Source: Ferruginibacter sp. (lineage in GTDB: Bacteria > Bacteroidota > Bacteroidia > Chitinophagales > Chitinophagaceae). Taken from it: a stretch of DNA of 64,000 nucleotides. The stretch spans positions 64,716 to 128,715 of the forward strand of contig JAGOAX010000010.1 in assembly GCA_017983695.1 (NCBI GenBank), in the 5' to 3' direction. The position numbers were made by a program, and so were the translations under genes. Each line of letters opens with the position of its first letter. Position 1 is the stretch's first letter. The notes beneath the pieces were generated by a model that searched no databases, had not been told where the DNA came from, and was given only the letters and a program-made list of their open reading frames with translations. Shown piece after piece: positions 820 through 22,685 of this stretch.

Positions 820-2133
820 ATGCCAGCCACCATTTCATTAACAGAAAACAATACCAGCCGTGTAAAGCTAAGCAGGCAACCGTTGCTGCTGGTTATTTAT
901 ATTTCTTTATGTGCCTTTGTAATTTACAGTTGCATGTATGGTTTTAGAAAACCTTATACTGCTGCTACATACAATAACATTTTCTTTTTAGGCATTTCTT
1001 ATAAAGTATGTTTGGTAATTGCACAGGTGTTGGGTTATATGTGCAGCAAGTTTTATGGCATCAAATTTATTTCGGGTATGAAGCCAGAGCTCCGCTCTGT
1101 TTACATTGTTTTATTTATAGGTATTGCATGGGCATCGTTATTGCTGTTTGCAATAATTCCGCCGCCATACAATATCATCTGTATGTTTATTAATGGCCTT
1201 CCGCTGGGTATGGTATTTGGTTTGGTATTTGGTTTTTTAGAAGGCAGGAGAACAACAGAATTGATGGGAGCCATTTTAGCTACCAGTTTTATTTTTGCAT
1301 CGGGCCTGGCCAAAACCATTGGCAAATGGTTGATACTTGATTTTAATTTCAGTGATTGGTGGATGCCTTTTACTGCCGGTGCTTTTTTTGTAATCCCCCT
1401 TTGTATTTGTGTAAAGCTATTGCACCAGGCACCGCCGCCCAGTGCAGACGATATTGCACACCGCACCATTCGTAAACCAATGACTGCTGCAGAAAGAAAA
1501 CAATTTATAAAGCAGTTTGGTTTTGCCATTACACCAATCATATTGGCGTATGCAGTATTTACTATCGTAAGGGATTTTGTAGAAGACTTTGCCAACGAGT
1601 TGTGGACAGAAACAGGCTTTCAAAATAATGCAGGTGTATTTGCACAAACAAGTACAACTATTGCATTAATTACACTGGCCATTATTGCCGGTTTCTTTTT
1701 AATAAAAAGTAATTACAAAGCATTCAGGTTAAGTCATTTTTTAATAATGGCCGGAGTATTGTTATCTGCCATATCCACTTTTTGTTTTAGCGCTCATTTT
1801 ATTACACCGTTTACCTGGATGTTGTTTAGCACCACAGGCCTGTACCTGGCATACCTCCCCTTTAATTGTATTTACTTTGAGCGCATGTTAGCCACTTACA
1901 AAATAAATGGCAATATTGGTTTTGTAATGTACATAGCCGATGCATTTGGGTATTTGGGTACTGTAGCTGTTTTGCTGATAAAAGAATTTATACCGATTAA
2001 ATACAGCTGGATAAATTTTTTCAGTTTTCTTTTTTATGCAGCGGCAGCTTTAGGTGTGCTGCTTATCATTATCAGTTTAAGTACACACAGTAAATTATAT
2101 AAAAATTTATGCAACAAAAATCAGCCATCGTAA
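820..2133 (+). CDS. DUF5690 family MFS-like membrane transporter
   Basis: About 12 hydrophobic segments; YSCMYGFRKPY, LEGRRTTE, FASGLAK, RDFVEDF, YIADAFGYLG motifs. Confidence 0.8.
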   Translation: MPATISLTENNTSRVKLSRQPLLLVIYISLCAFVIYSCMYGFRKPYTAATYNNIFFLGISYKVCLVIAQVLGYMCSKFYGIKFISGMKPELRSVYIVLFIGIAWASLLLFAIIPPPYNIICMFINGLPLGMVFGLVFGFLEGRRTTELMGAILATSFIFASGLAKTIGKWLILDFNFSDWWMPFTAGAFFVIPLCICVKLLHQAPPPSADDIAHRTIRKPMTAAERKQFIKQFGFAITPIILAYAVFTIVRDFVEDFANELWTETGFQNNAGVFAQTSTTIALITLAIIAGFFLIKSNYKAFRLSHFLIMAGVLLSAISTFCFSAHFITPFTWMLFSTTGLYLAYLPFNCIYFERMLATYKINGNIGFVMYIADAFGYLGTVAVLLIKEFIPIKYSWINFFSFLFYAAAALGVLLIIISLSTHSKLYKNLCNKNQPS

Positions 2134-3251
2134 TTGGTGCCGGCATTGTTGGCCTTGCCAGTGCAAGAGCTCTTGCACAAAAGGGTTTTAGTGTAAAAGT
2201 ATTCGACCGCCATCCGCAGGCGATGGGTGCATCGATACGGAATTTTGGAATGGTATGGCCCATTGGCCAGCCATCCGGCACTATGTACAACCGTGCCATG
2301 CGCAGCAGAACAATCTGGAAGACCATTGCTAAGGAAGCCAACATCTGGCACGAAGAAACCGGCAGTCTTCACTTAGCATACAATGCAACAGAGTGGCAGG
2401 TATTACAAGAGCTGGAAAATATTTTTAAACAGGAAAAAAGAAATGTTACGCTTTTAGATAAAAATAAAATTGTAACCCTGTATGAACATGTTAACGCTGA
2501 TAATTTAATCGGCGGGTTATACAGTGCTGATGAAATGCTCATAGACCCCAGAGAAGCCATTGCAGCATTGCCTGAATACCTGGAAGAAAAATATGCTGTA
2601 GAATTTTACTGGAACAATTGTGCAAGTTATATTGCTGACCAAACAGTGTATGTTGGTAAAGAAGAATATGAAGCTGATATAATTTTTGTGTGTAGTGGTG
2701 CCGATTTTGAAACACTTTATCCTGAAGAATTTTCAAAACTACCCATAACAAAATGCAAATTACAAATGCTGCGTACCGTTCCCATGCCGGAACGCTATCG
2801 TATTAAAACTGCAATTTGCGGCGGCTTATCTTTATTGCATTACAGCAGTTTTAAAGCTGCGCCTTCGCTACCGATACTGCAAAAAAAGATGGCGGAAGAA
2901 ATGAAGCCGTATCTGGATTTGGGCATACATGTAATGGCTGCACAAAATGGCAAAGGAGAAATTACCATTGGCGATTCGCATGAATACGGATTGTACCTTG
3001 ACCCTTTTGACAGGGCATCCACCAATAAGCTAATTCTGGAGTATTTAAAAAGTTTTTTAAATATCAACAATAATTCCATTGCCGAGACCTGGAATGGTAT
3101 TTATCCCAAGCTAACCAACGGCGATACCGAAATTTTCTTTTCGCCTGACCATGGCGTATATATTTTGAATGGTGTTGGTGGTGCCGGCATGACCTTATCT
3201 TTTGGCCTTGCAGAAGAAGTGGTAGACCAGGTGGTGATGGTGACTGCGTAA
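2109..3251 (+). CDS. TIGR03364-type FAD-dependent oxidoreductase (DAO family, phosphonate-associated)
   Basis: GAGIVG Rossmann motif, GASIRNFGMVWP, GEITIGDSHEY, GVGGAGMTLSFGLAE. Confidence 0.85.
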   Translation: MQQKSAIVIGAGIVGLASARALAQKGFSVKVFDRHPQAMGASIRNFGMVWPIGQPSGTMYNRAMRSRTIWKTIAKEANIWHEETGSLHLAYNATEWQVLQELENIFKQEKRNVTLLDKNKIVTLYEHVNADNLIGGLYSADEMLIDPREAIAALPEYLEEKYAVEFYWNNCASYIADQTVYVGKEEYEADIIFVCSGADFETLYPEEFSKLPITKCKLQMLRTVPMPERYRIKTAICGGLSLLHYSSFKAAPSLPILQKKMAEEMKPYLDLGIHVMAAQNGKGEITIGDSHEYGLYLDPFDRASTNKLILEYLKSFLNINNNSIAETWNGIYPKLTNGDTEIFFSPDHGVYILNGVGGAGMTLSFGLAEEVVDQVVMVTA

Positions 3252-10196: not shown

Positions 10197-10469
10197 TTAT
10201 TTGGCTTTTTTAAGCGCAGGTTTTGCAATTTTTTTCTTTACTGTCTTTGCTGATTTAGTAACCACTTTTTTAGTTGGTTTAGCAATTACTTTTTTAACTG
10301 GCTTCTTTTCTATCCCAGCTACCAGTAATTTTGCAGCCTTTTTGATTCTTTTGTTAAATTTCTTTTCGCCAAGTTGCACCTTTAAAGCAGTTAGAGTGGT
10401 ATGCAACTGTTCTGTAACTGTTTTCAATATTTTTTCGCCAGCAACTGTAGTTTTCTTTTCTTTTGACAT
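10197..10469 (-). CDS. Small Lys-rich protein with histone H1-like tail
   Basis: Start at MSKEKK; C-terminal half KKPVKKVIAKPTKK...KKAK. Confidence 0.7.
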   Translation of the reverse strand: MSKEKKTTVAGEKILKTVTEQLHTTLTALKVQLGEKKFNKRIKKAAKLLVAGIEKKPVKKVIAKPTKKVVTKSAKTVKKKIAKPALKKAK

Positions 10470-10619
10470 CTGTATTTTATTAAATGATAACACAAACTTA
10501 ATATAAGATCAGGATTTCCAATGTTAAGTTTTAGCAGCGGTACAACAATTGATGCATTGCACTATTTTCCTGTACCGGCATTGGGATGTACCGGATAATA
10601 ATTTTAGATGAGCAAAGGC

Positions 10620-10790
10620 CTATTTCATTTTTTCTTCAGTATCCACATCCCCTTCTTCATTTTTTACTTTGTGGTAATCATTGTTCTGCTGTTGTTCAAA
10701 TTCTTTTTCATCCTTTGCATTGCGCTGCACCAGAAAAACAATTAAAGCAACGAGTGCTATACCCACAATAATTATTACTGTCCAGTTCAT
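10620..10790 (-). CDS. Small single-pass membrane protein, 56 aa (not in ORF track)
   Basis: MNWTVIIIVGIALVALIVFLVQRNAKDEKEFEQQQNNDYHKVKNEEGDVDTEEKMK*: TM helix plus charged tail. Confidence 0.75.
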   Translation of the reverse strand: MNWTVIIIVGIALVALIVFLVQRNAKDEKEFEQQQNNDYHKVKNEEGDVDTEEKMK

Positions 10791-10871: not shown

Positions 10872-10926
10872 GTAACATTGTCTTAATAGTGGGGTAATAA
10901 TTTAGTAAAACACCGCCGGTAATTTG
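10872..10926 (+). promoter_or_regulatory. Putative Pho-box array (4 x 11 bp) plus degenerate -7 element
   Basis: gtaaca 10872, ttaata 10883, gtaata 10894, gtaaaa 10905; TTTG at 10923 (18 nt offset). Confidence 0.7.
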
Positions 10927-10944
10927 CAGTATAAAAATCTGTTG

Positions 10945-11637
10945 ATGCAAACTAACCCATCTATGTTTCGCCAAAATAAAATATACTTTACCGGCCTTAT
11001 AGCAGTATTATTATTCAGTACCCTGTTTTTATTGATCAATGGTAAAGCTGCAGCTTTTATTTCGCTTAACAGCTACCACCCTTTTTTATTGAACGTTTTT
11101 TTTATCAATTATACTTTTATGGGTGATGGCATTTTTGCATTGTGCCTAACTGCCGCAGTACTTTTTTATTTTAAAAGAAAACAAGAGGGTTTAGCATTAT
11201 TGTATTCATTTTTAATCTCCGGCATTGCTGTACAAATAATAAAAAACCTGGTAAACAGCCCAAGGCCAAAATTATTTTTTGAGGCTGGTCAATATTTACA
11301 TTTTATTGATGGGGTAAGCCTTGCAAATAATTCCAGCTTCCCGTCGGGCCATACAGCTACAGCATTTGCAATTGCCACAGTAATGGTGGTAATGATGAAA
11401 AATAAAAGCTGGCAGTTGTTTATTTTGATTGCAACAGTACTGGTAGGCTATTCCAGGATCTATTTAGCGCAACATTTTTTACTGGATATAATAATTGGTG
11501 CAATAATCGGTAGTGCATCTGGTGTATTATCGGTTTACTTAGCCAAAAATATAAAAGGCATTAAACGATCCATTAAAAAAATGCATCGTTTGTCTCCCGA
11601 TACGGCACCATTACCATCTGCCATACAGCCCGTATGA
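10945..11637 (+). CDS. PAP2-family membrane phosphatase
   Basis: C1 KNLVNSPRP, C2 SFPSGH, C3 SRIYLAQHFLLD; track start 10924 lies inside the -7 element so ATG 10945 (or 10963) is preferred. Confidence 0.9.
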   Translation: MQTNPSMFRQNKIYFTGLIAVLLFSTLFLLINGKAAAFISLNSYHPFLLNVFFINYTFMGDGIFALCLTAAVLFYFKRKQEGLALLYSFLISGIAVQIIKNLVNSPRPKLFFEAGQYLHFIDGVSLANNSSFPSGHTATAFAIATVMVVMMKNKSWQLFILIATVLVGYSRIYLAQHFLLDIIIGAIIGSASGVLSVYLAKNIKGIKRSIKKMHRLSPDTAPLPSAIQPV

Positions 11638-12017
11638 ATACAATGATTGATACCCGGTTTTTAAAGTTTGGAATAGTAGGATTAAGTGGCATGGCAATAG
11701 ATTTTTCTGTTACCTGGTTTTGTAAAGAGAAGTTACGCCTCAATAAATACATTGCTAATTCCACAGGATTTTGCTGCGCTGTTATTAATAATTTTATACT
11801 AAACCGCTACTGGACGTTTGGCAGCAACGGACATCCATTTGCCGGACAGTTTGCAAAATTTATTTTGGTTTCTCTGACAGGACTACTTATCAATAATTTA
11901 TTACTTTATTGCTGCTCAAAATATATCAAAACCAATTTTTACCTCATAAAACTTATTGTAACCGGCCTTGTTTTTTTCTGGAACTACTTTATAAATTTTC
12001 TTTTTACGTTTAATTAG
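11634..12017 (+). CDS. GtrA family lipid-linked sugar flippase
   Basis: 127 aa, 4 TM, KFGIVG...NFILNRYWTF; ATGA overlap with upstream gene. Confidence 0.9.
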   Translation: MNTMIDTRFLKFGIVGLSGMAIDFSVTWFCKEKLRLNKYIANSTGFCCAVINNFILNRYWTFGSNGHPFAGQFAKFILVSLTGLLINNLLLYCCSKYIKTNFYLIKLIVTGLVFFWNYFINFLFTFN

Positions 12018-12024
12018 CTGCAAT

Positions 12025-13572
12025 TTGAATTATAAAAAGAAAACCTTACTGCTTATTGGCTTTGCTACTTTATTGCGCTGGATTACCGCAGGTTGTATTG
12101 AGTTGGGTAACGACGAAGTGTATTACCGTATGTATGCACAGCACCTGCAATGGAATTATTTTGACCACCCGCCAATGGTAGGCTGGCTTATCAGGTTTAC
12201 AACTGCCAATCTTTTTTTTGATAATGAAATATTCATAAGGCTTGCTGCAATTATTGCTGCAGCCTTAACCAGTTGGATTTTCTTCCTCTCCGGTAAAAAA
12301 TTAGGTAATGACTACACCGGTTTTTTGGCTGTGGCAATTTATACGGCTACTATTTACGGAAGTATAATTGCCGGTACCTTTATTTTACCTGATTCGCCAC
12401 AAATGGTTTGCTGGGCCGCAGGTTTATATTTATTAATTGATATTGCAAAGCACTCTGATATCACCCGTATTAAAAAAAAGAAAGTAGTATGGTTTGGCGC
12501 AATAATGGGTTTAGGGATGCTTTGCAAAATTCATACTTCGTTTTTATGGCTCGGGTTTTTATTGTATATCCTTTTGTACAACAGGCAATGGTTAAGGCAA
12601 CCTGTATTATATCTCTCCGGCATAATTACCTTACTATTTTTTTACCCGGTTATACAATGGAATATCGATAACCATTTTGTTACTTATCTCTACCACAGCA
12701 ACAGGGTAAACATTAGCAAAGCCGGAATTGATTTCACGTCGTTTTTAACTTTTGCAGCAGGGCAGCTATTTTACTACAACCCGGTTATTTTTATTTGTAT
12801 TATTATAGCAACTGTTGCCGCTATTAAAAATAAATTGCCTGTATTATCTTTCCAAAAAAGAATATTGCTGCTTTGTAGCTTACCATTAATAATTACTGCC
12901 ACTATTATTTCCTTATTTAAAAATGTATTGCCGCACTGGACCGGACCGGCATACAGCAGCCTTATATTATTAACGGCCTGCTATTTTGCAAAGCAAAAAA
13001 GTGATGAAAAAATAATGCCCCAGCCCATACTTTTTGCTAACGCTTTACTTATTGTAATAATTATCAGCGGCATTATGCTGGCAAATCTTTTACCCGGCAC
13101 ACTAGGCAAAAAAGATAAGCAATTGTATGGTGAGGGAGATTTTACTTTAGATATGTATGGATGGAAAAGTTTGAAATCCGATTTTTCAAAAATAGTTGAA
13201 GCTGATATAAAAAATGGACTGATGAAACCTGGAGCAGTTATCATCGGCAATAAATGGTTTCCGGCAGCACATACAGATTTTTATGTGGCCATGCCGCTAA
13301 AAAAAGATTTTATTGCTATTGGTGATACTAATGAAATACATCAGTACGCCTGGATAAACACACAAAGGAAAAAGCTGCAACCGGGTGATAATGCTTATTG
13401 TATAGTACCCTCTAATTACAATACCGATGTACAAGCCTTTTATGATGAAAATTTTACAACAATACTACCTCCTCAAGTAATTGAGCAAAAAAGAAATGGT
13501 ACTGTTTGCCGATATTTTTATATCTGGCGGCTACTGCATTTCAAACAAAATCAAAATCCCCTTTTAAAATAA
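12025..13572 (+). CDS. GT-C glycosyltransferase (ArnT/PMT-like, family 39/83)
   Basis: DEVYY and YFDHPPMVGW motifs, many TM segments, periplasmic C-terminal domain. Confidence 0.85.
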   Translation: MNYKKKTLLLIGFATLLRWITAGCIELGNDEVYYRMYAQHLQWNYFDHPPMVGWLIRFTTANLFFDNEIFIRLAAIIAAALTSWIFFLSGKKLGNDYTGFLAVAIYTATIYGSIIAGTFILPDSPQMVCWAAGLYLLIDIAKHSDITRIKKKKVVWFGAIMGLGMLCKIHTSFLWLGFLLYILLYNRQWLRQPVLYLSGIITLLFFYPVIQWNIDNHFVTYLYHSNRVNISKAGIDFTSFLTFAAGQLFYYNPVIFICIIIATVAAIKNKLPVLSFQKRILLLCSLPLIITATIISLFKNVLPHWTGPAYSSLILLTACYFAKQKSDEKIMPQPILFANALLIVIIISGIMLANLLPGTLGKKDKQLYGEGDFTLDMYGWKSLKSDFSKIVEADIKNGLMKPGAVIIGNKWFPAAHTDFYVAMPLKKDFIAIGDTNEIHQYAWINTQRKKLQPGDNAYCIVPSNYNTDVQAFYDENFTTILPPQVIEQKRNGTVCRYFYIWRLLHFKQNQNPLLK

Positions 13573-13581
13573 AAGGGGATT
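13555..13581. terminator. Hairpin terminator between convergent remodelling operons
   Basis: aatcccctttt-aaaat-aaaaggggatt perfect 11-bp stem overlapping the stop codon. Confidence 0.7.
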
Positions 13582-15071: not shown

Positions 15072-16160
15072 TTAGCCCCCTATTTGATTTAATATTTTTC
15101 CGAGGCTGATGTCTTTTAATTTTTTGGCTGAATAGGCCGTTTCTCCCAACGCAGCAGCAGCAGGAGGTTTAACTGTGCCGTGTTTCTTTATAATGCCATT
15201 GATGATTTTTTCTGTAATGTTGGGATAATTAACAGAGAGGATCAATTTGGATGTTGTCCAGGCCTGTATTTTTTCGAGGTGTTTTTCTTTTAAACTTTTT
15301 ATTACCGGCACACCCATGGTTTTTAAAGCAGCAGCATTACATTGCTGTTCGTATTGTCCCTTCATAGGAATTACCATCAGTTTCTTTTTTAAAAACAAAG
15401 CCTCTGCCGGTGTTTCAAATCCTGCTCCGCAAAGTATGCCGGTACAGTTGATCATGCTGTCAATGAAAGCATCATTACTAATGGGGCGTATGTGTACGTT
15501 TTTTTCTGTGTACTCTTTTTTAGAATGCTTGCTGAACACCTGCCAGTTAATATTTTTTACCTGGCTCAATATTTTAACAATACGTTTATCATCATAAGCA
15601 GGAAGGTAAACTGTATAATGGCCTTTATTTTCTGCAACAGCTTTGCGTACCTGGCTTCTTATTACCGGAGTAGAAATATTTTTATCGTAAGCGCCAAAAT
15701 GAAAACCGTAGGCTTCGGTAACCGGTGCATAATTATGTAAGATGGCTTTACCTACAGGATCTTTCTTTTCGGGCTTAGGAGATTTTTTATTGATAACTGC
15801 GGCCTGGTGGCTTAAACCAATACATGTTTTATGTTTCATTTTACAGGCCCAGGCGCTTACGGGTTCAAAATCGTTTATTACAAGATCGTACTGCTCTACT
15901 GGCAAACTCTTAATTTCTTTATACAGTTTTTTTAAATTGCTCTTCCGGTAAGTTGCTAATAGATCAATGCCCCCCTTCTTACCAAAAATAAAACTCAACC
16001 CTTTAAATTTATATTTTACCGGATAAGGCAATTCCACATCGGCTTGTATGCCACTTACCAAAATATCCAGCTCCCCCTTTTGCTGCAATATGGGAATAAT
16101 ATCTCTTGCCCTGCTTAAGTGGCCGTTACCTGTGCCTTGTATGGCATATAATATTTTCAT
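15072..16160 (-). CDS. MJ1255/VC2487-family GT-B glycosyltransferase
   Basis: MKILYAIQGTGNGHLSRA, DFEPVSAW, AGFETPAEAL, GQYEQQCNA. Confidence 0.88.
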   Translation of the reverse strand: MKILYAIQGTGNGHLSRARDIIPILQQKGELDILVSGIQADVELPYPVKYKFKGLSFIFGKKGGIDLLATYRKSNLKKLYKEIKSLPVEQYDLVINDFEPVSAWACKMKHKTCIGLSHQAAVINKKSPKPEKKDPVGKAILHNYAPVTEAYGFHFGAYDKNISTPVIRSQVRKAVAENKGHYTVYLPAYDDKRIVKILSQVKNINWQVFSKHSKKEYTEKNVHIRPISNDAFIDSMINCTGILCGAGFETPAEALFLKKKLMVIPMKGQYEQQCNAAALKTMGVPVIKSLKEKHLEKIQAWTTSKLILSVNYPNITEKIINGIIKKHGTVKPPAAAALGETAYSAKKLKDISLGKILNQIGG

Positions 16161-17017
16161 CAGTTGCGCATTAAATTAAATTCCTCCACCATGTTATCAA
16201 ATAAGGTACTGTTATCCAATTCTTCCTCTTCAATTACAGACGCTTTCATTTTCAGCATTTCCTGTTCATCAAATTTATATATCTGCCATTCATTGTTTAC
16301 GTATTCCAAAGCTGTTAAATTTTCTATCCAGTCGCCACTGTTTAAATATAAAATTTTTCCATGCCCGTTTACAATTTCTCTCATCTCCGGCTGATGAATA
16401 TGTCCGCACACCACATAATCGTAATTATTGCTTATGCCTATCGCTGCTGCAGTATCTTCAAAATTGTTAATAAATTTTACTGCACTCTTTACACTATTCT
16501 TTATTTTTTTTGAGAGGGAAAGTTTTCCCCTGCCAAATATTTTTTCTGAAATAAAATTTGCCACCCGGTTAATTAAAATCAGGGTATCATACCCAACAGC
16601 TCCCAATTTAGCCAGCCATTTACTATGTTGCATGGTTACATCAAATACGTCACCATGAAAAAACCAGGCTTTTTTTCCATCATCCAAATCAAGCACCACC
16701 TTGTTTACAATTCGTAACGATCCCATTTTAAACCCTGCAAACTTCCGCAGCATTTCATCGTGGTTGCCGGTAACATAATACAGTTTTACCCCTTTGCTCA
16801 TCCAGCCCATAATATGCTTCACCACTTTCATGTGGCTTTTAGGCCAGTACCGTTTGCTGAACTGCCAAATATCAACAATATCACCATTTAAGACTACAAT
16901 TTTTGGTTTGATAGTTATAAGATAGTGTAATAGCTCTTTGGCATGGCAACCATAAGTACCAAGGTGAACATCGGAGAGCACCAGAATATCCAGTTTTCTT
17001 TTTTTAGTTGCCGCCAT
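16160..17017 (-). CDS. PlcP/LpxH-like metallophosphoesterase (likely phospholipase C by context)
   Basis: SDVHLG, GDIVDIW, GNHD, HGDVFD, GHIH, NSGDW; coupled to a glycosyltransferase. Confidence 0.85.
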   Translation of the reverse strand: MAATKKRKLDILVLSDVHLGTYGCHAKELLHYLITIKPKIVVLNGDIVDIWQFSKRYWPKSHMKVVKHIMGWMSKGVKLYYVTGNHDEMLRKFAGFKMGSLRIVNKVVLDLDDGKKAWFFHGDVFDVTMQHSKWLAKLGAVGYDTLILINRVANFISEKIFGRGKLSLSKKIKNSVKSAVKFINNFEDTAAAIGISNNYDYVVCGHIHQPEMREIVNGHGKILYLNSGDWIENLTALEYVNNEWQIYKFDEQEMLKMKASVIEEEELDNSTLFDNMVEEFNLMRN

Positions 17018-20826: not shown

Positions 20827-20860
20827 AGCTTTACCTGTACAAGTTATAGGTAAAGCTTTT
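20827..20860. terminator. Bidirectional terminator
   Basis: agctttacctgta...tataggtaaagct stem between convergent genes. Confidence 0.75.
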
Positions 20861-21908
20861 AATCTTTCTTTTTAGGTAATGTAAAACCAAAGGTGGTACC
20901 TACATCAATTTTACTGCGTACATGAATGGTCTGACCATGGGCTTCCACAATATGTTTGCAAATAGAAAGACCTAAACCACTACCCCCAACTTTCCTGCTT
21001 CTTGCTAAATCGGTACGATAAAACCTTTCAAATATCCTGGGTAAATGTTCTTCTGCAATACCGGAGCCATCATCACTGATCTCTATTAATATTCTACGAC
21101 CATCTATCCGGTAAAAGCTACTTTCTATTGTGCCATTTTGCTTACCATACTTGATCGCATTGTCTACAAGATTTATAAAAACCTGCCGTATTTTTTCTTT
21201 ATCGGCATAAACAGTTAATGGTTGTTCGCAGCCTTTTTTAATAATGCATTTAATTTCTTTTTCTTCTGCTTTAATAGCTAAGGTTTCATACACTTCCTTC
21301 AGCAGGTCCTGTATCACAAAATTTTGCTGGTACAGCAATTGTTCGCCACTTTCTAATTTTGATATTTCATCAAGGTCATCTACTAAATTCACCAGTCGGT
21401 CAACATTACGGGAAGTGCTGTTTAAAAATTTTTTATTTACATCAGGATTTTCCAAAGCGCCATTTAATAAAGTATCTACATAACCCTGTATGGCAAAAAT
21501 CGGTGTCTTTAATTCATGACTCAGATTTTGCAAAAATTCTTTGCGGTAAGTTTCGTTTTGCTGCAGTAATTCTATTTCTTCTTTACGCTGTATGGCCCAT
21601 TTTTCCACGTCTTCCCTTACTTCATCAATGCCTTTCTGGGGTAAAATATTTTTATAGTAAAACTCTTCTCTTTTGCTGGCCTTGGTTTGATAAATGAGTT
21701 TGTAAATGAGTTTTATTTTGCGGTAAATAAAAGTTTGCAGTGCGTAAGATATTAATGCATAGCTGCCCAAAAACATGGCTACAAATGAAACCAACGGTAT
21801 CCACCAAACCGGTTTAAAAATAAAAACCACAATTGCCACCGGCACCGATAAACCCAATGCCGTTAATGCAGATAATTGTTGTGGTGAAAGATTTTTTTGT
21901 GAAGGCAT
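20859..21908 (-). CDS. phoR: Sensor histidine kinase, PhoR-like
   Basis: Two N-terminal TMs, SHELKTP H-box, NLVDNAIKYG, DDGSGI, GGSGLGL; located in a phosphorus cluster. Confidence 0.8.
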   Translation of the reverse strand: MPSQKNLSPQQLSALTALGLSVPVAIVVFIFKPVWWIPLVSFVAMFLGSYALISYALQTFIYRKIKLIYKLIYQTKASKREEFYYKNILPQKGIDEVREDVEKWAIQRKEEIELLQQNETYRKEFLQNLSHELKTPIFAIQGYVDTLLNGALENPDVNKKFLNSTSRNVDRLVNLVDDLDEISKLESGEQLLYQQNFVIQDLLKEVYETLAIKAEEKEIKCIIKKGCEQPLTVYADKEKIRQVFINLVDNAIKYGKQNGTIESSFYRIDGRRILIEISDDGSGIAEEHLPRIFERFYRTDLARSRKVGGSGLGLSICKHIVEAHGQTIHVRSKIDVGTTFGFTLPKKKD

Positions 21909-21987
21909 ACACCTATCCCCTAAAGGAAAAATTTATTTTAGCGAAGATATTAAGATAACATCAATAACTCCCTTTCGGGGATGCGGT

Positions 21988-22662
21988 CTATATTTCAAAC
22001 TTATACCCTACGCCTTTTACAGTGCTGATGCAATCAAGGTCTAATTTTTGGCGAATTTTGCGGATGTGTACATCAATGGTACGGTCGCCAACTATAACTT
22101 CAGTGCCCCAAATAGTGTTCAATATTTCGTTGCGTAAAAAAACTTTGCCGGGTTTGCCAGCCAGTAAAGCCAGTAATTCAAATTCTTTTCTGGCCAGTAC
22201 AATATCGTTTCCTTTAAAATTGATCATATATTTCTCCCTGTCAATTTCAAGATCACCCACTTTTAACACTTTGGGTCCATCATTACTAAACCTTCTGAAC
22301 AAGGCATTTACCTTACTCACTAAAACTTTAGGGCTTATAGGTTTTGTCAGGTAATCATCGGCCCCACTTTCCAACCCTTTCACTTCGGTGCCTTCATCAC
22401 TCAATGCAGTTAAAAAAATAATAAGGGTATTTTTAAAAGCGGGCAGGCTGCGTAAAGTATTACAAACTTCCATCCCGGTTTTACCCGGCATCATAATATC
22501 CAGTATTATCAAATCCGGAAGGGTTCGTTTTGCTTTTTCGATGGCTTCGTTGCCGTTCTTTGCAGTAATCACTTCAAAACCTTCTCCCTGCAAATTGTAT
22601 TGGATGATCTCCAGGATATCGGGCTCATCATCGGCAATTAATATTTTTTTAACAGTACTCAT
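21988..22662 (-). CDS. phoP: OmpR-family response regulator, PhoP/PhoB-like
   Basis: DDEPDI, LDIMMP, GADDYLTKP, DRTIDVHIRKIR, VKGVGYKF; start moved to ATG 22662 because the -7 box overlaps 22680. Confidence 0.82.
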   Translation of the reverse strand: MSTVKKILIADDEPDILEIIQYNLQGEGFEVITAKNGNEAIEKAKRTLPDLIILDIMMPGKTGMEVCNTLRSLPAFKNTLIIFLTALSDEGTEVKGLESGADDYLTKPISPKVLVSKVNALFRRFSNDGPKVLKVGDLEIDREKYMINFKGNDIVLARKEFELLALLAGKPGKVFLRNEILNTIWGTEVIVGDRTIDVHIRKIRQKLDLDCISTVKGVGYKFEI

Positions 22663-22675
22663 AAGTAAAACGTTG

Positions 22676-22685
22676 TGCAAAAGTA
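22676..22685 (-). promoter_or_regulatory. Housekeeping -7 element of phoPR
   Basis: TACTTTTGCA on the minus strand, a perfect TAnnTTTG. Confidence 0.7.

Follow-up and report, generated by a model that had tools for sequence, protein, structure and literature searches.

The 64,000-nucleotide stretch of contig JAGOAX010000010.1 analysed here (the window, to which all plain coordinates refer) comes from a Ferruginibacter-like Chitinophagaceae bacterium of wastewater (genome of 4.48 Mb, 99.6% complete) and carries, behind an array of four phased hexamers, an operon coding for a PAP2 membrane phosphatase, a GtrA-family protein and a glycosyltransferase of the GT-C fold. We propose, with a probability of roughly 0.65, that this operon exchanges a phosphate group for a sugar on some envelope lipid facing the periplasm, and that it does so under Pho-type control. 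Three intact genes in one operon behind a four-unit array had been described in the initial annotation, and the open reading frames (ORFs), Pfam matches, array and spacing were all found:

10872..10910, + strand: candidate PhoB-type array, four hexamers in 11-bp phase (from the sequence, genome scans and conservation)
10919..10926, + strand: GTAATTTG, Bacteroidota -7-like promoter element with a TTTG core (read in the sequence, with a presumed function)
10945..11637, + strand: PAP2 membrane lipid phosphatase, LpxE-like, 230 aa (PF01569, motifs, match to 6EBU)
11634..12017, + strand: GtrA-family small membrane protein, 127 aa, putative polyprenyl-phosphate-sugar flippase (PF04138)
12025..13572, + strand: GT-C fold glycosyltransferase, 515 aa, PMT_2/GT39-like, ArnT-like by predicted structure (PF13231, AlphaFold2 model)
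13555..13581, both strands: bidirectional hairpin terminator, common to the operon and a convergent GH1 gene (stem and T-runs)

The three ORFs are closely spaced between the array and the terminator. The GtrA start overlaps the PAP2 stop by 4 nt (ATGA at 11634-11637), and the GT-C gene, whose N-terminus, MNYKKK, is kept in homologues, begins with a TTG after a gap of 7 nt. The hairpin, with a 12-bp stem and T-runs on both strands, overlaps the GT-C stop. The PAP2 frame is open from TTG 10924, the longest-ORF start, with ATG 10945 as the alternative; as TTG 10924 falls inside the promoter-like TTTG element, 18 nt past the last unit of the array, ATG 10945 is the more likely start judging from the sequence, and would leave a leader of only ~10 nt.

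The first gene product is a member of the PAP2 / lipid phosphate phosphatase (LPT) family, with both the Pfam domain (PF01569, 97 bits against a cut-off of 27.2) and a complete set of catalytic motifs (KNLVNSPRP, PSGH and SRIYLAQHFLLD), the tripartite motif KX6RP - PSGH - SRX5HX3D being what defines this family (PMC6581854). Its best match in the Protein Data Bank (PDB) is LpxE of Aquifex aeolicus (6EBU; E 2.7e-19, 37% identity), in an alignment of residues 42-201 with 24-173 described as full length, and the second best is YodM of B. subtilis (E 7.5e-7). For Aquifex LpxE, lipid A 1-phosphatase activity is proven (PMC6581854), and within this genome the operon PAP2 is the closest relative of such a characterised enzyme; lipid A of the Aquifex lineage has galacturonic acid (GalA) in place of phosphate. 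NCBIfam names none of the three operon proteins, and no LpxE model in it matched the PAP2, for which the best match is an undecaprenyl pyrophosphate (Und-PP) phosphatase model at 59.5 bits, far under the cut-off of 250. The substrate range is not readable from the PAP2 sequence. A phyletic profile of the PAP2 was also tried and set aside, its signal being blurred by a continuum of paralogues.

The glycosyltransferase is the only PMT_2 protein of the genome (PF13231, 84.4 bits) and also passes the PMT model, over part of the profile only (PF02366, 29.7 bits, cut-off 22.7). Invariant motifs of its family are LGNDEVYY, an acidic motif in the first periplasmic loop, and NYFDHPP, with D30-E31 invariant. 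An AlphaFold2 model of moderate confidence (pLDDT 75, pTM 0.76) has as its top Foldseek match ArnT of Cupriavidus metallidurans (5EZM; E 1.7e-8, TM-score 0.60/0.58 over ~575 columns). The runner-up, AglB, is about three orders of magnitude weaker (3.9e-5), ALG12, Pmt4, STT3, AftA and PimE are also behind ArnT, and Pmt structures lie well below it. The model shows the arrangement of a transmembrane (TM) domain and a C-terminal periplasmic domain that is typical of the ArnT-like fold, and relatives of this protein are annotated publicly as 'ArnT family' or 'GT39'.

Between these two enzymes lies a GtrA-family protein (PF04138, GtrA_DPMS_TM; 91.7 bits against a cut-off of 26.1, profile positions 1-117 of 117), having the four helices and the small size of about 120 aa usual for the family; the genome has two GtrA domains, this copy included. 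GtrA-type systems use polyprenyl monophosphate donors and release undecaprenyl phosphate (Und-P), not Und-PP. The GtrA protein and the GT-C fold imply a polyprenyl monophosphate donor releasing Und-P, which makes a carrier-recycling pyrophosphatase unnecessary. The absence of the GT2 donor synthase from the cluster had been noted initially and holds well beyond the present genome, with no GT2 gene at the operon nor within 6-8 kb of the GT-C gene in ~100 loci. Two ArnC-like GT2s of the genome, each with two C-terminal TM helices, are candidates for the donor synthase. One is an orphan (C1:379969-380913) for which assignment by phyletic profile failed, since it occurs in 148 of 151 Chitinophagaceae genomes and thus gives no phyletic signal; the other (C32:315042-315977) has an ArnB-like / GT-C-like cluster of its own.

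Some further features of these genes may be recorded here. Neither a GT2 nor a GT-C gene adjoins the second GtrA gene (C8:97574-98062). The orphan GT2, which is kept in the two thirds of genomes lacking a PMT_2 enzyme, stands between a DUF4199-like membrane protein and a GT4 gene (C1:379477-385316), and the GT4 is followed by apparent heptose-nucleotide genes (GHMP kinase, SIS isomerase, nucleotidyltransferase and HAD phosphatase, as read from their sequences). The C32 cluster (C32:311468-318689, outside the window) is a second, self-contained polyprenyl-phosphate-sugar cluster in which an ArnC/PgfS-like GT2 (311 aa) is accompanied by a methyltransferase, a DegT/ArnB-like aminotransferase and three large multi-TM proteins (518, 401 and 476 aa) not recognised by Pfam PMT_2; the cluster may serve modification with an amino sugar in the manner of Arn.

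The array upstream of the operon consists of the units GTAACA, TTAATA, GTAATA and GTAAAA, beginning at 10872, 10883, 10894 and 10905. No other exact match to this four-unit pattern exists in the 4.48-Mb genome, and the array has the top phased-array score genome-wide (26.8 with a weight matrix). Within the window a loose IUPAC pattern gives 7 matches where 0.21 are expected, a number reached in none of 100 shuffles. Other window arrays precede the genes for a TonB-dependent receptor (3365), an alkaline-phosphatase-superfamily enzyme (9045) and a choice-of-anchor I protein (17239), a PlcP-like gene has an array upstream on the - strand (17215-17177), and a further array, outside the window and 14 kb upstream of it, precedes a porin-like gene. 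The offset of the TTTG element is the same at the other window arrays and at orthologous loci. Four more genes of the island are of importance here:

15072-16160, - strand: Agt-like glycosyltransferase, context gene (Pfam and NCBIfam matches)
16160-17017, - strand: PlcP-like metallophosphoesterase, context gene (Pfam and NCBIfam matches)
20859-21908, - strand: PhoR-like histidine kinase (best NCBIfam match PnpS/PhoR)
21988-22680, - strand: PhoB-like response regulator (best NCBIfam matches PhoB)

The response regulator is the highest-scoring PhoB-like regulator of the genome, its best NCBIfam matches being PhoB TIGR02154 (222 bits) and Bacteroides PhoB NF053854 (202 bits), both under the respective cut-offs, and orthologues of the PhoB/PhoR-like pair adjoin the GT-C module in other genomes. 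This pair (20859-22680) probably regulates through the arrays. The Pho-type control proposed in the initial annotation is thus well supported in silico: the operon has at its promoter the phased repeats that it holds in common with PlcP and phosphatase genes, the two-component pair lies in the same island, and arrays are conserved before PAP2-led operons in several families. Induction of the operon by low phosphate (Pi) would be expected. A literature search gave nothing specific on a Bacteroidota Pho box. A PAP2 protein of Flavobacterium johnsoniae (Fjoh_4469; PMC8115612) was considered as evidence for a Pi response and not used, as it is represented by a single peptide and has no evident GtrA/GT-C neighbour.

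The GT-C family is large (>2800 matches in a word-indexed search; 305 clusters at 50% identity and E <=1e-30), and all named matches are from Bacteroidota: Chitinophagaceae, Sphingobacteriaceae, Flavobacteriaceae, Weeksellaceae, Spirosomataceae, Saprospiraceae, Cyclobacteriaceae and Bacteroidales. Among Chitinophagaceae genera about a third (47/151) have it. The immediate neighbours of the GT-C gene in 78 named Bacteroidota loci are both PAP2 and GtrA in 31 cases, PAP2 only in 13, GtrA only in 10 and neither in 24, so that PAP2 and/or GtrA flank it in 54/78 loci; beyond these two, no family, and no GT2, recurs beside it in about 100 loci. In Chitinophagaceae and Sphingobacteriales the contexts of the module are rearranged yet always phosphorus-related, recurring ones being PlcP-Agt(-GH1), an alkaline-phosphatase-superfamily enzyme, the PhoBR-like pair, DUF5690 with an oxidase of TIGR03364 (genes of the phosphonate type, as at 820-3251) and, in one genome, pstB. 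The module also recurs beside PhoD/MauG.

Arrays were scored before the first operon gene of 75 named Bacteroidota loci, with a threshold of 12. The threshold was reached by 24 of 42 PAP2-led operons (median 12-15), a count that overstates independence as many of the high-scoring loci belong to one GT-C clade, by none of 9 GtrA-led operons and by 1 of 24 lone GT-C genes. PAP2-led high scorers include Flavobacterium (with a conserved two-unit site), Pedobacter and Sphingobacteriales, and PAP2-linked operons occur in at least two well-supported GT-C clades across several families. Where close PAP2 orthologues lack a GT-C gene, they too have moderate arrays or a location in the Pho island. Taken with the arrays of PAP2-led operons, this makes the phosphatase step look, at the level of sequence, like the phosphate-starvation-specific part of the module. 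A tree of the GT-C proteins of 77 loci has three supported clades, one almost always with PAP2, one with PAP2 or GtrA and one mostly alone or with a PHP-like gene. Ferruginibacter and Pedobacter are each present in more than one of them, which suggests paralogous subfamilies or transfer, and the clades possibly have different acceptor sites.

PAP2 is not the only phosphoesterase associated with this GT-C family. Some members reach ~920 aa by an N-terminal domain of ~400 aa (P0137, P0146, P0170, P0185, P0251, P0263/P0404), and an ORF of 394 aa from the family of this domain stands before GtrA-GT-C or GT-C in Ilyomonas, a Chitinophagaceae metagenome-assembled genome (MAG) and Dyadobacter arcticus. 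Labelled CehA/McbA metallohydrolase or PHP in the sources, the 394-aa family has the invariant residues HxH, E, H, H and DDxH; in Foldseek, its model (pLDDT 90) matches metal-dependent phosphoesterases of the PHP-like type (3E38, E 6e-11; 2ANU, 1.5e-6), and the domain is flanked by TM helices, consistent with a periplasmic location. Another member, of 756 aa, ends in a C-terminal GDPD domain (PF03009, 7e-38), a fusion found in 15 near-identical members from independent assemblies; its gene has as neighbours two PhoD phosphatases, a MauG-like gene and another PHP-like gene. Three phosphoesterase folds that are not related to one another (PAP2, PHP-like and GDPD) are therefore partners of a single GT-C family, and the simplest reading is that the GT-C enzyme acts on the product of dephosphorylation.

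These pairings bear directly on an explanation that we consider unlikely, namely that the genes are co-regulated and have independent functions, the PAP2 being a Pi-scavenging or Und-PP phosphatase while the GT-C enzyme and GtrA glycosylate a protein, the core or O-antigen of lipopolysaccharide (LPS) or another glycan. The best NCBIfam matches of the PAP2, sub-threshold as they are, are indeed Und-PP phosphatases, the GT-C enzyme passes a Pfam model of protein O-mannosyltransferases, and GT-C genes often stand alone or with GtrA only and then have no array. However, a monophosphate donor leaves Und-P, for which a pyrophosphatase is not needed, the known kind of Und-PP phosphatase is neither PHP-like nor GDPD, and the association of three unrelated folds with one GT-C family is hard to explain without a common substrate. 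A narrower version of this explanation, in which the PAP2 recycles Und-PP and the GT-C enzyme glycosylates proteins, was the alternative offered in the initial annotation and is weakened on the same two grounds, the GtrA-type donor and the PHP-like/GDPD partners.

The same gene set of PAP2, GtrA and GT-C is known in another role. In mycobacteria the PAP2 protein Rv3807c dephosphorylates decaprenyl-phospho-5-phosphoribose, and a GtrA-like protein and GT-C enzymes then use the product. The PAP2 of the present operon could by analogy mature the donor and not the acceptor, as in the synthesis of mycobacterial arabinan through decaprenylphosphoryl arabinose (DPA), yet no gene for a UbiA-type phosphoribosyltransferase or epimerase lies in or near the ~100 loci, and Pho-type control and the GDPD partner would be left unexplained; we regard this as highly improbable.

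Two loci with alternative partners have peculiarities of their own. The PHP-like gene beside the GDPD-fused GT-C (L144:10268-11551, - strand) has QVQ at the invariant HxH site of its family, and this copy may, to judge by that substitution, be inactive, its role having been taken by the fused GDPD domain. The GT-C orthologue of Dyadobacter arcticus (L113:5860-8205) reaches 781 aa through an additional C-terminal domain of ~250 aa (…GGGYAGIHSAGDTEHHWPWY…); the PHP-like gene is upstream of it, and a two-unit array-like site lies 18 nt before CTTTG.

From the gene content and structure of the operon, the family and fold assignments of its products, the conserved array and the linkage to phosphoesterases and Pho-type genes, we infer the acceptor, the addition of a sugar and the order of the two steps as follows. 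PhoB-type control would switch the module on in phosphate starvation. The PAP2 enzyme would hydrolyse phosphate off a membrane-anchored envelope lipid at the periplasmic face of the inner membrane, the likeliest substrate being lipid A 1-phosphate (or 4'-phosphate), as with LpxE/LpxF, and the freed Pi would be usable by the cell. An ArnC-like GT2 encoded elsewhere would charge undecaprenyl phosphate with a sugar, GtrA would carry the charged carrier to the periplasmic face, and the ArnT-fold GT-C enzyme would put the sugar on the freed hydroxyl, as RgtF/RgtD do with GalA in Rhizobiales and Aquifex.

Lipid A is the best-supported acceptor, with a chance that we place somewhat short of even, given the similarity of the PAP2 to LpxE, the ArnT-like fold of the GT-C model, the precedent of lpxE-rgtF(-rgtE) and the occurrence in Bacteroidota of lipid A with GalA for phosphate. 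In Oligotropha, rgtE, lpxE and rgtF are consecutive genes (PMC7663294), and lipid A of Echinicola (Bacteroidota) bears GalA on the non-reducing glucosamine, on the 4'-phosphate side, replacing phosphate (PMC8707317). The initial annotation had proposed that lipid A (or another envelope lipid) is dephosphorylated and glycosylated in phosphorus starvation; the Pho-type array, the LpxE-like PAP2, the ArnT-like model and the lpxE-rgtF precedent speak for this in part, with lipid A as a candidate substrate. More tentatively still, one may suppose that in many Bacteroidota phosphate is removed from lipid A (or from lipid A with its 3-deoxy-D-manno-oct-2-ulosonic acid, Kdo) under the control of PhoB and replaced by a sugar cap from Und-P, the GT-C family having recruited PAP2, PHP-like and GDPD enzymes for this purpose.

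The nearest known system is LpxE/RgtF (with RgtE) of Mesorhizobium, Oligotropha and Aquifex, where the gene of a PAP2 lipid phosphatase likewise stands beside that of a GT-C enzyme using a polyprenyl-phosphate sugar (PMC7663294), with the same logic of phosphate out and sugar in. Those systems are constitutive, not known to be Pho-regulated and found in Proteobacteria and Aquificae, and they have the GT2 RgtE where the present operon has GtrA; RgtF/RgtD and the operon GT-C, a member of a Bacteroidota-wide family, are likened by gene order alone. ArnT (PDB 5EZM/5F15) and arnBCADTEF share with our genome the fold of the transferase as modelled, ArnC-like GT2 candidates and an acidic motif of the DE type in the first periplasmic loop. 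Unlike the operon enzyme, whose phosphatase partner implies that phosphate is removed, ArnT decorates phosphate, and Arn systems are under PmrA/PhoP and not Pho-type control. The combination of a GtrA flippase and a GT-C enzyme with a separately encoded GT2 synthase of polyprenyl-phosphate sugars is also that of GtrA/GtrB/GtrC (and CsbB/GtcA/YfhO), but these systems have no phosphoesterase, modify O-antigen or teichoic acids and usually have the GT2 in the cluster.

A third comparison is offered by PlcP-Agt, the neighbour of the operon in this window, which shares with it the island, the array type and the logic of a sugar replacing lipid phosphate. PlcP-Agt acts on glycerophospholipids with nucleotide sugars on the cytoplasmic side, whereas the operon enzymes would face the periplasm and require a polyprenyl-phosphate sugar donor. 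It is an experimentally established pair for lipid renovation in phosphorus deficiency (PMC4796936), induced in Flavobacterium too (PMC8115612), and it adjoins the operon in at least 17 loci. This adjacency raises the question of whether the same chemistry could act on another lipid facing the periplasm, such as phosphatidic acid, phosphatidylglycerophosphate (PGP) or ceramide phosphate / phosphoglycerol ceramide, and give a phosphorus-free glycolipid that complements the products of PlcP-Agt. The GDPD fusion hints at glycerophosphodiester head groups, PAP2 orthologues exist without a GT-C gene, and PAP2 enzymes of the operon type accept PGP and undecaprenyl (C55) pyrophosphate, C55-PP (PMC6581854). 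On the other side, the GT-C model comes closest in structure to ArnT, an enzyme of lipid A, and we know of no GT-C enzyme that glycosylates diacylglycerol or ceramide. Lipid A is the substrate of the only known gene pairs of a phosphatase and a GT-C enzyme (PMC7663294). Another lipid as the acceptor seems unlikely.

Besides the clustering of array-bearing loci in one clade and the sub-threshold scores of the response regulator, several observations weigh against a starvation-controlled phosphate-for-sugar exchange on lipid A. The similarity to LpxE partly reflects a limit of the database, as two small PAP2 paralogues of the genome also have 6EBU as their best match (~1e-9), and Aquifex LpxE itself dephosphorylates C55-PP and PGP as well as lipid A (PMC6581854). 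No match of the GT-C enzyme to any PDB chain, 5EZM included, was found at E up to 10 with phmmer or a 36-sequence profile, and NCBIfam gave none either; the enzyme, ArnT-like by fold according to the model, is yet outside the ArnT family (GT83) by sequence. The occurrence of PAP2 orthologues without GT-C and of GT-C genes without a phosphoesterase, the 24/78 loci with neither neighbour being of note, indicates that the two steps can be uncoupled, and the GDPD partner points to a glycerophosphodiester substrate, which is not a classical substituent of lipid A. As for the control, arrays scoring >=20 number 10 at period 11 and 1-4 at each of the other periods among 8-16, an enrichment that arises partly by construction as the weight matrix was trained on arrays of the same window; with a strict regular expression for three-unit arrays period 11 is not enriched, the enrichment appearing only with the matrix and four-unit arrays. 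A tblastn search of the genome yielded no PstB orthologue (the best match has 30% identity to generic ABC ATPases), so that the Pho box is not checkable against pst genes, and the sequencing runs found to contain this sequence are DNA runs only, with no RNA runs among them. High-affinity Pi uptake in this genome may follow another route. In a related MAG (L062), pstB lies directly beside the PAP2-GtrA-GT-C operon.

Removal of lipid A phosphate by PAP2 enzymes and addition of a sugar by GT-C enzymes are already known. For phospholipids, membrane renovation that spares phosphorus is amply documented (PlcP-Agt, betaine and ornithine lipids). What would be new are the Pho-type control, the conserved Bacteroidota operon, GtrA in the place of a GT2 in the cluster, a GT-C sequence family unrelated to ArnT and the interchangeable phosphoesterases; our literature search found no paper describing any of these five elements, and no report of starvation-controlled replacement of LPS/lipid A phosphate. 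If the proposed exchange takes place, it represents a phosphorus-saving route not yet described for Bacteroidota and brings LPS, besides phospholipids, within the scope of lipid renovation. The charge of the outer membrane, sensitivity to polymyxin and recognition by TLR4 would then depend on phosphate supply, and a large proportion of the Bacteroidota of soil, freshwater and wastewater would alter outer-membrane charge and lipid A with it, with effects on susceptibility to cationic antimicrobials, recognition by phages and predators and the immunological activity of environmental LPS. The operon would also provide candidate genes for the sugar-substituted lipid A seen chemically in Echinicola (PMC8707317). 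Whatever the acceptor, the pairing of the GT-C family with three phosphoesterase folds constitutes an annotation rule for thousands of 'GT39/ArnT family' proteins, and the three genes are a target directly testable in cultivable strains. Cultivable candidates with all three genes are Ferruginibacter sp. SUN106, Flavobacterium aquicola DSM 100880 and Pedobacter sp. UC225_65, and Pedobacter soli DSM 18609 has PAP2 and GT-C only.

Two small ORFs lie on the other side of the array. Divergent from the PAP2 promoter is an ORF of 56 aa with a single TM helix (10620-10790, - strand; MNWTVIIIVGIALVALIVFLV...), and adjoining it is a lysine-rich, histone-H1-like ORF of 98 aa (10197-10493, - strand). A relative with 73% identity (L031) has counterparts of both (56 and 90 aa) in the same relative positions.

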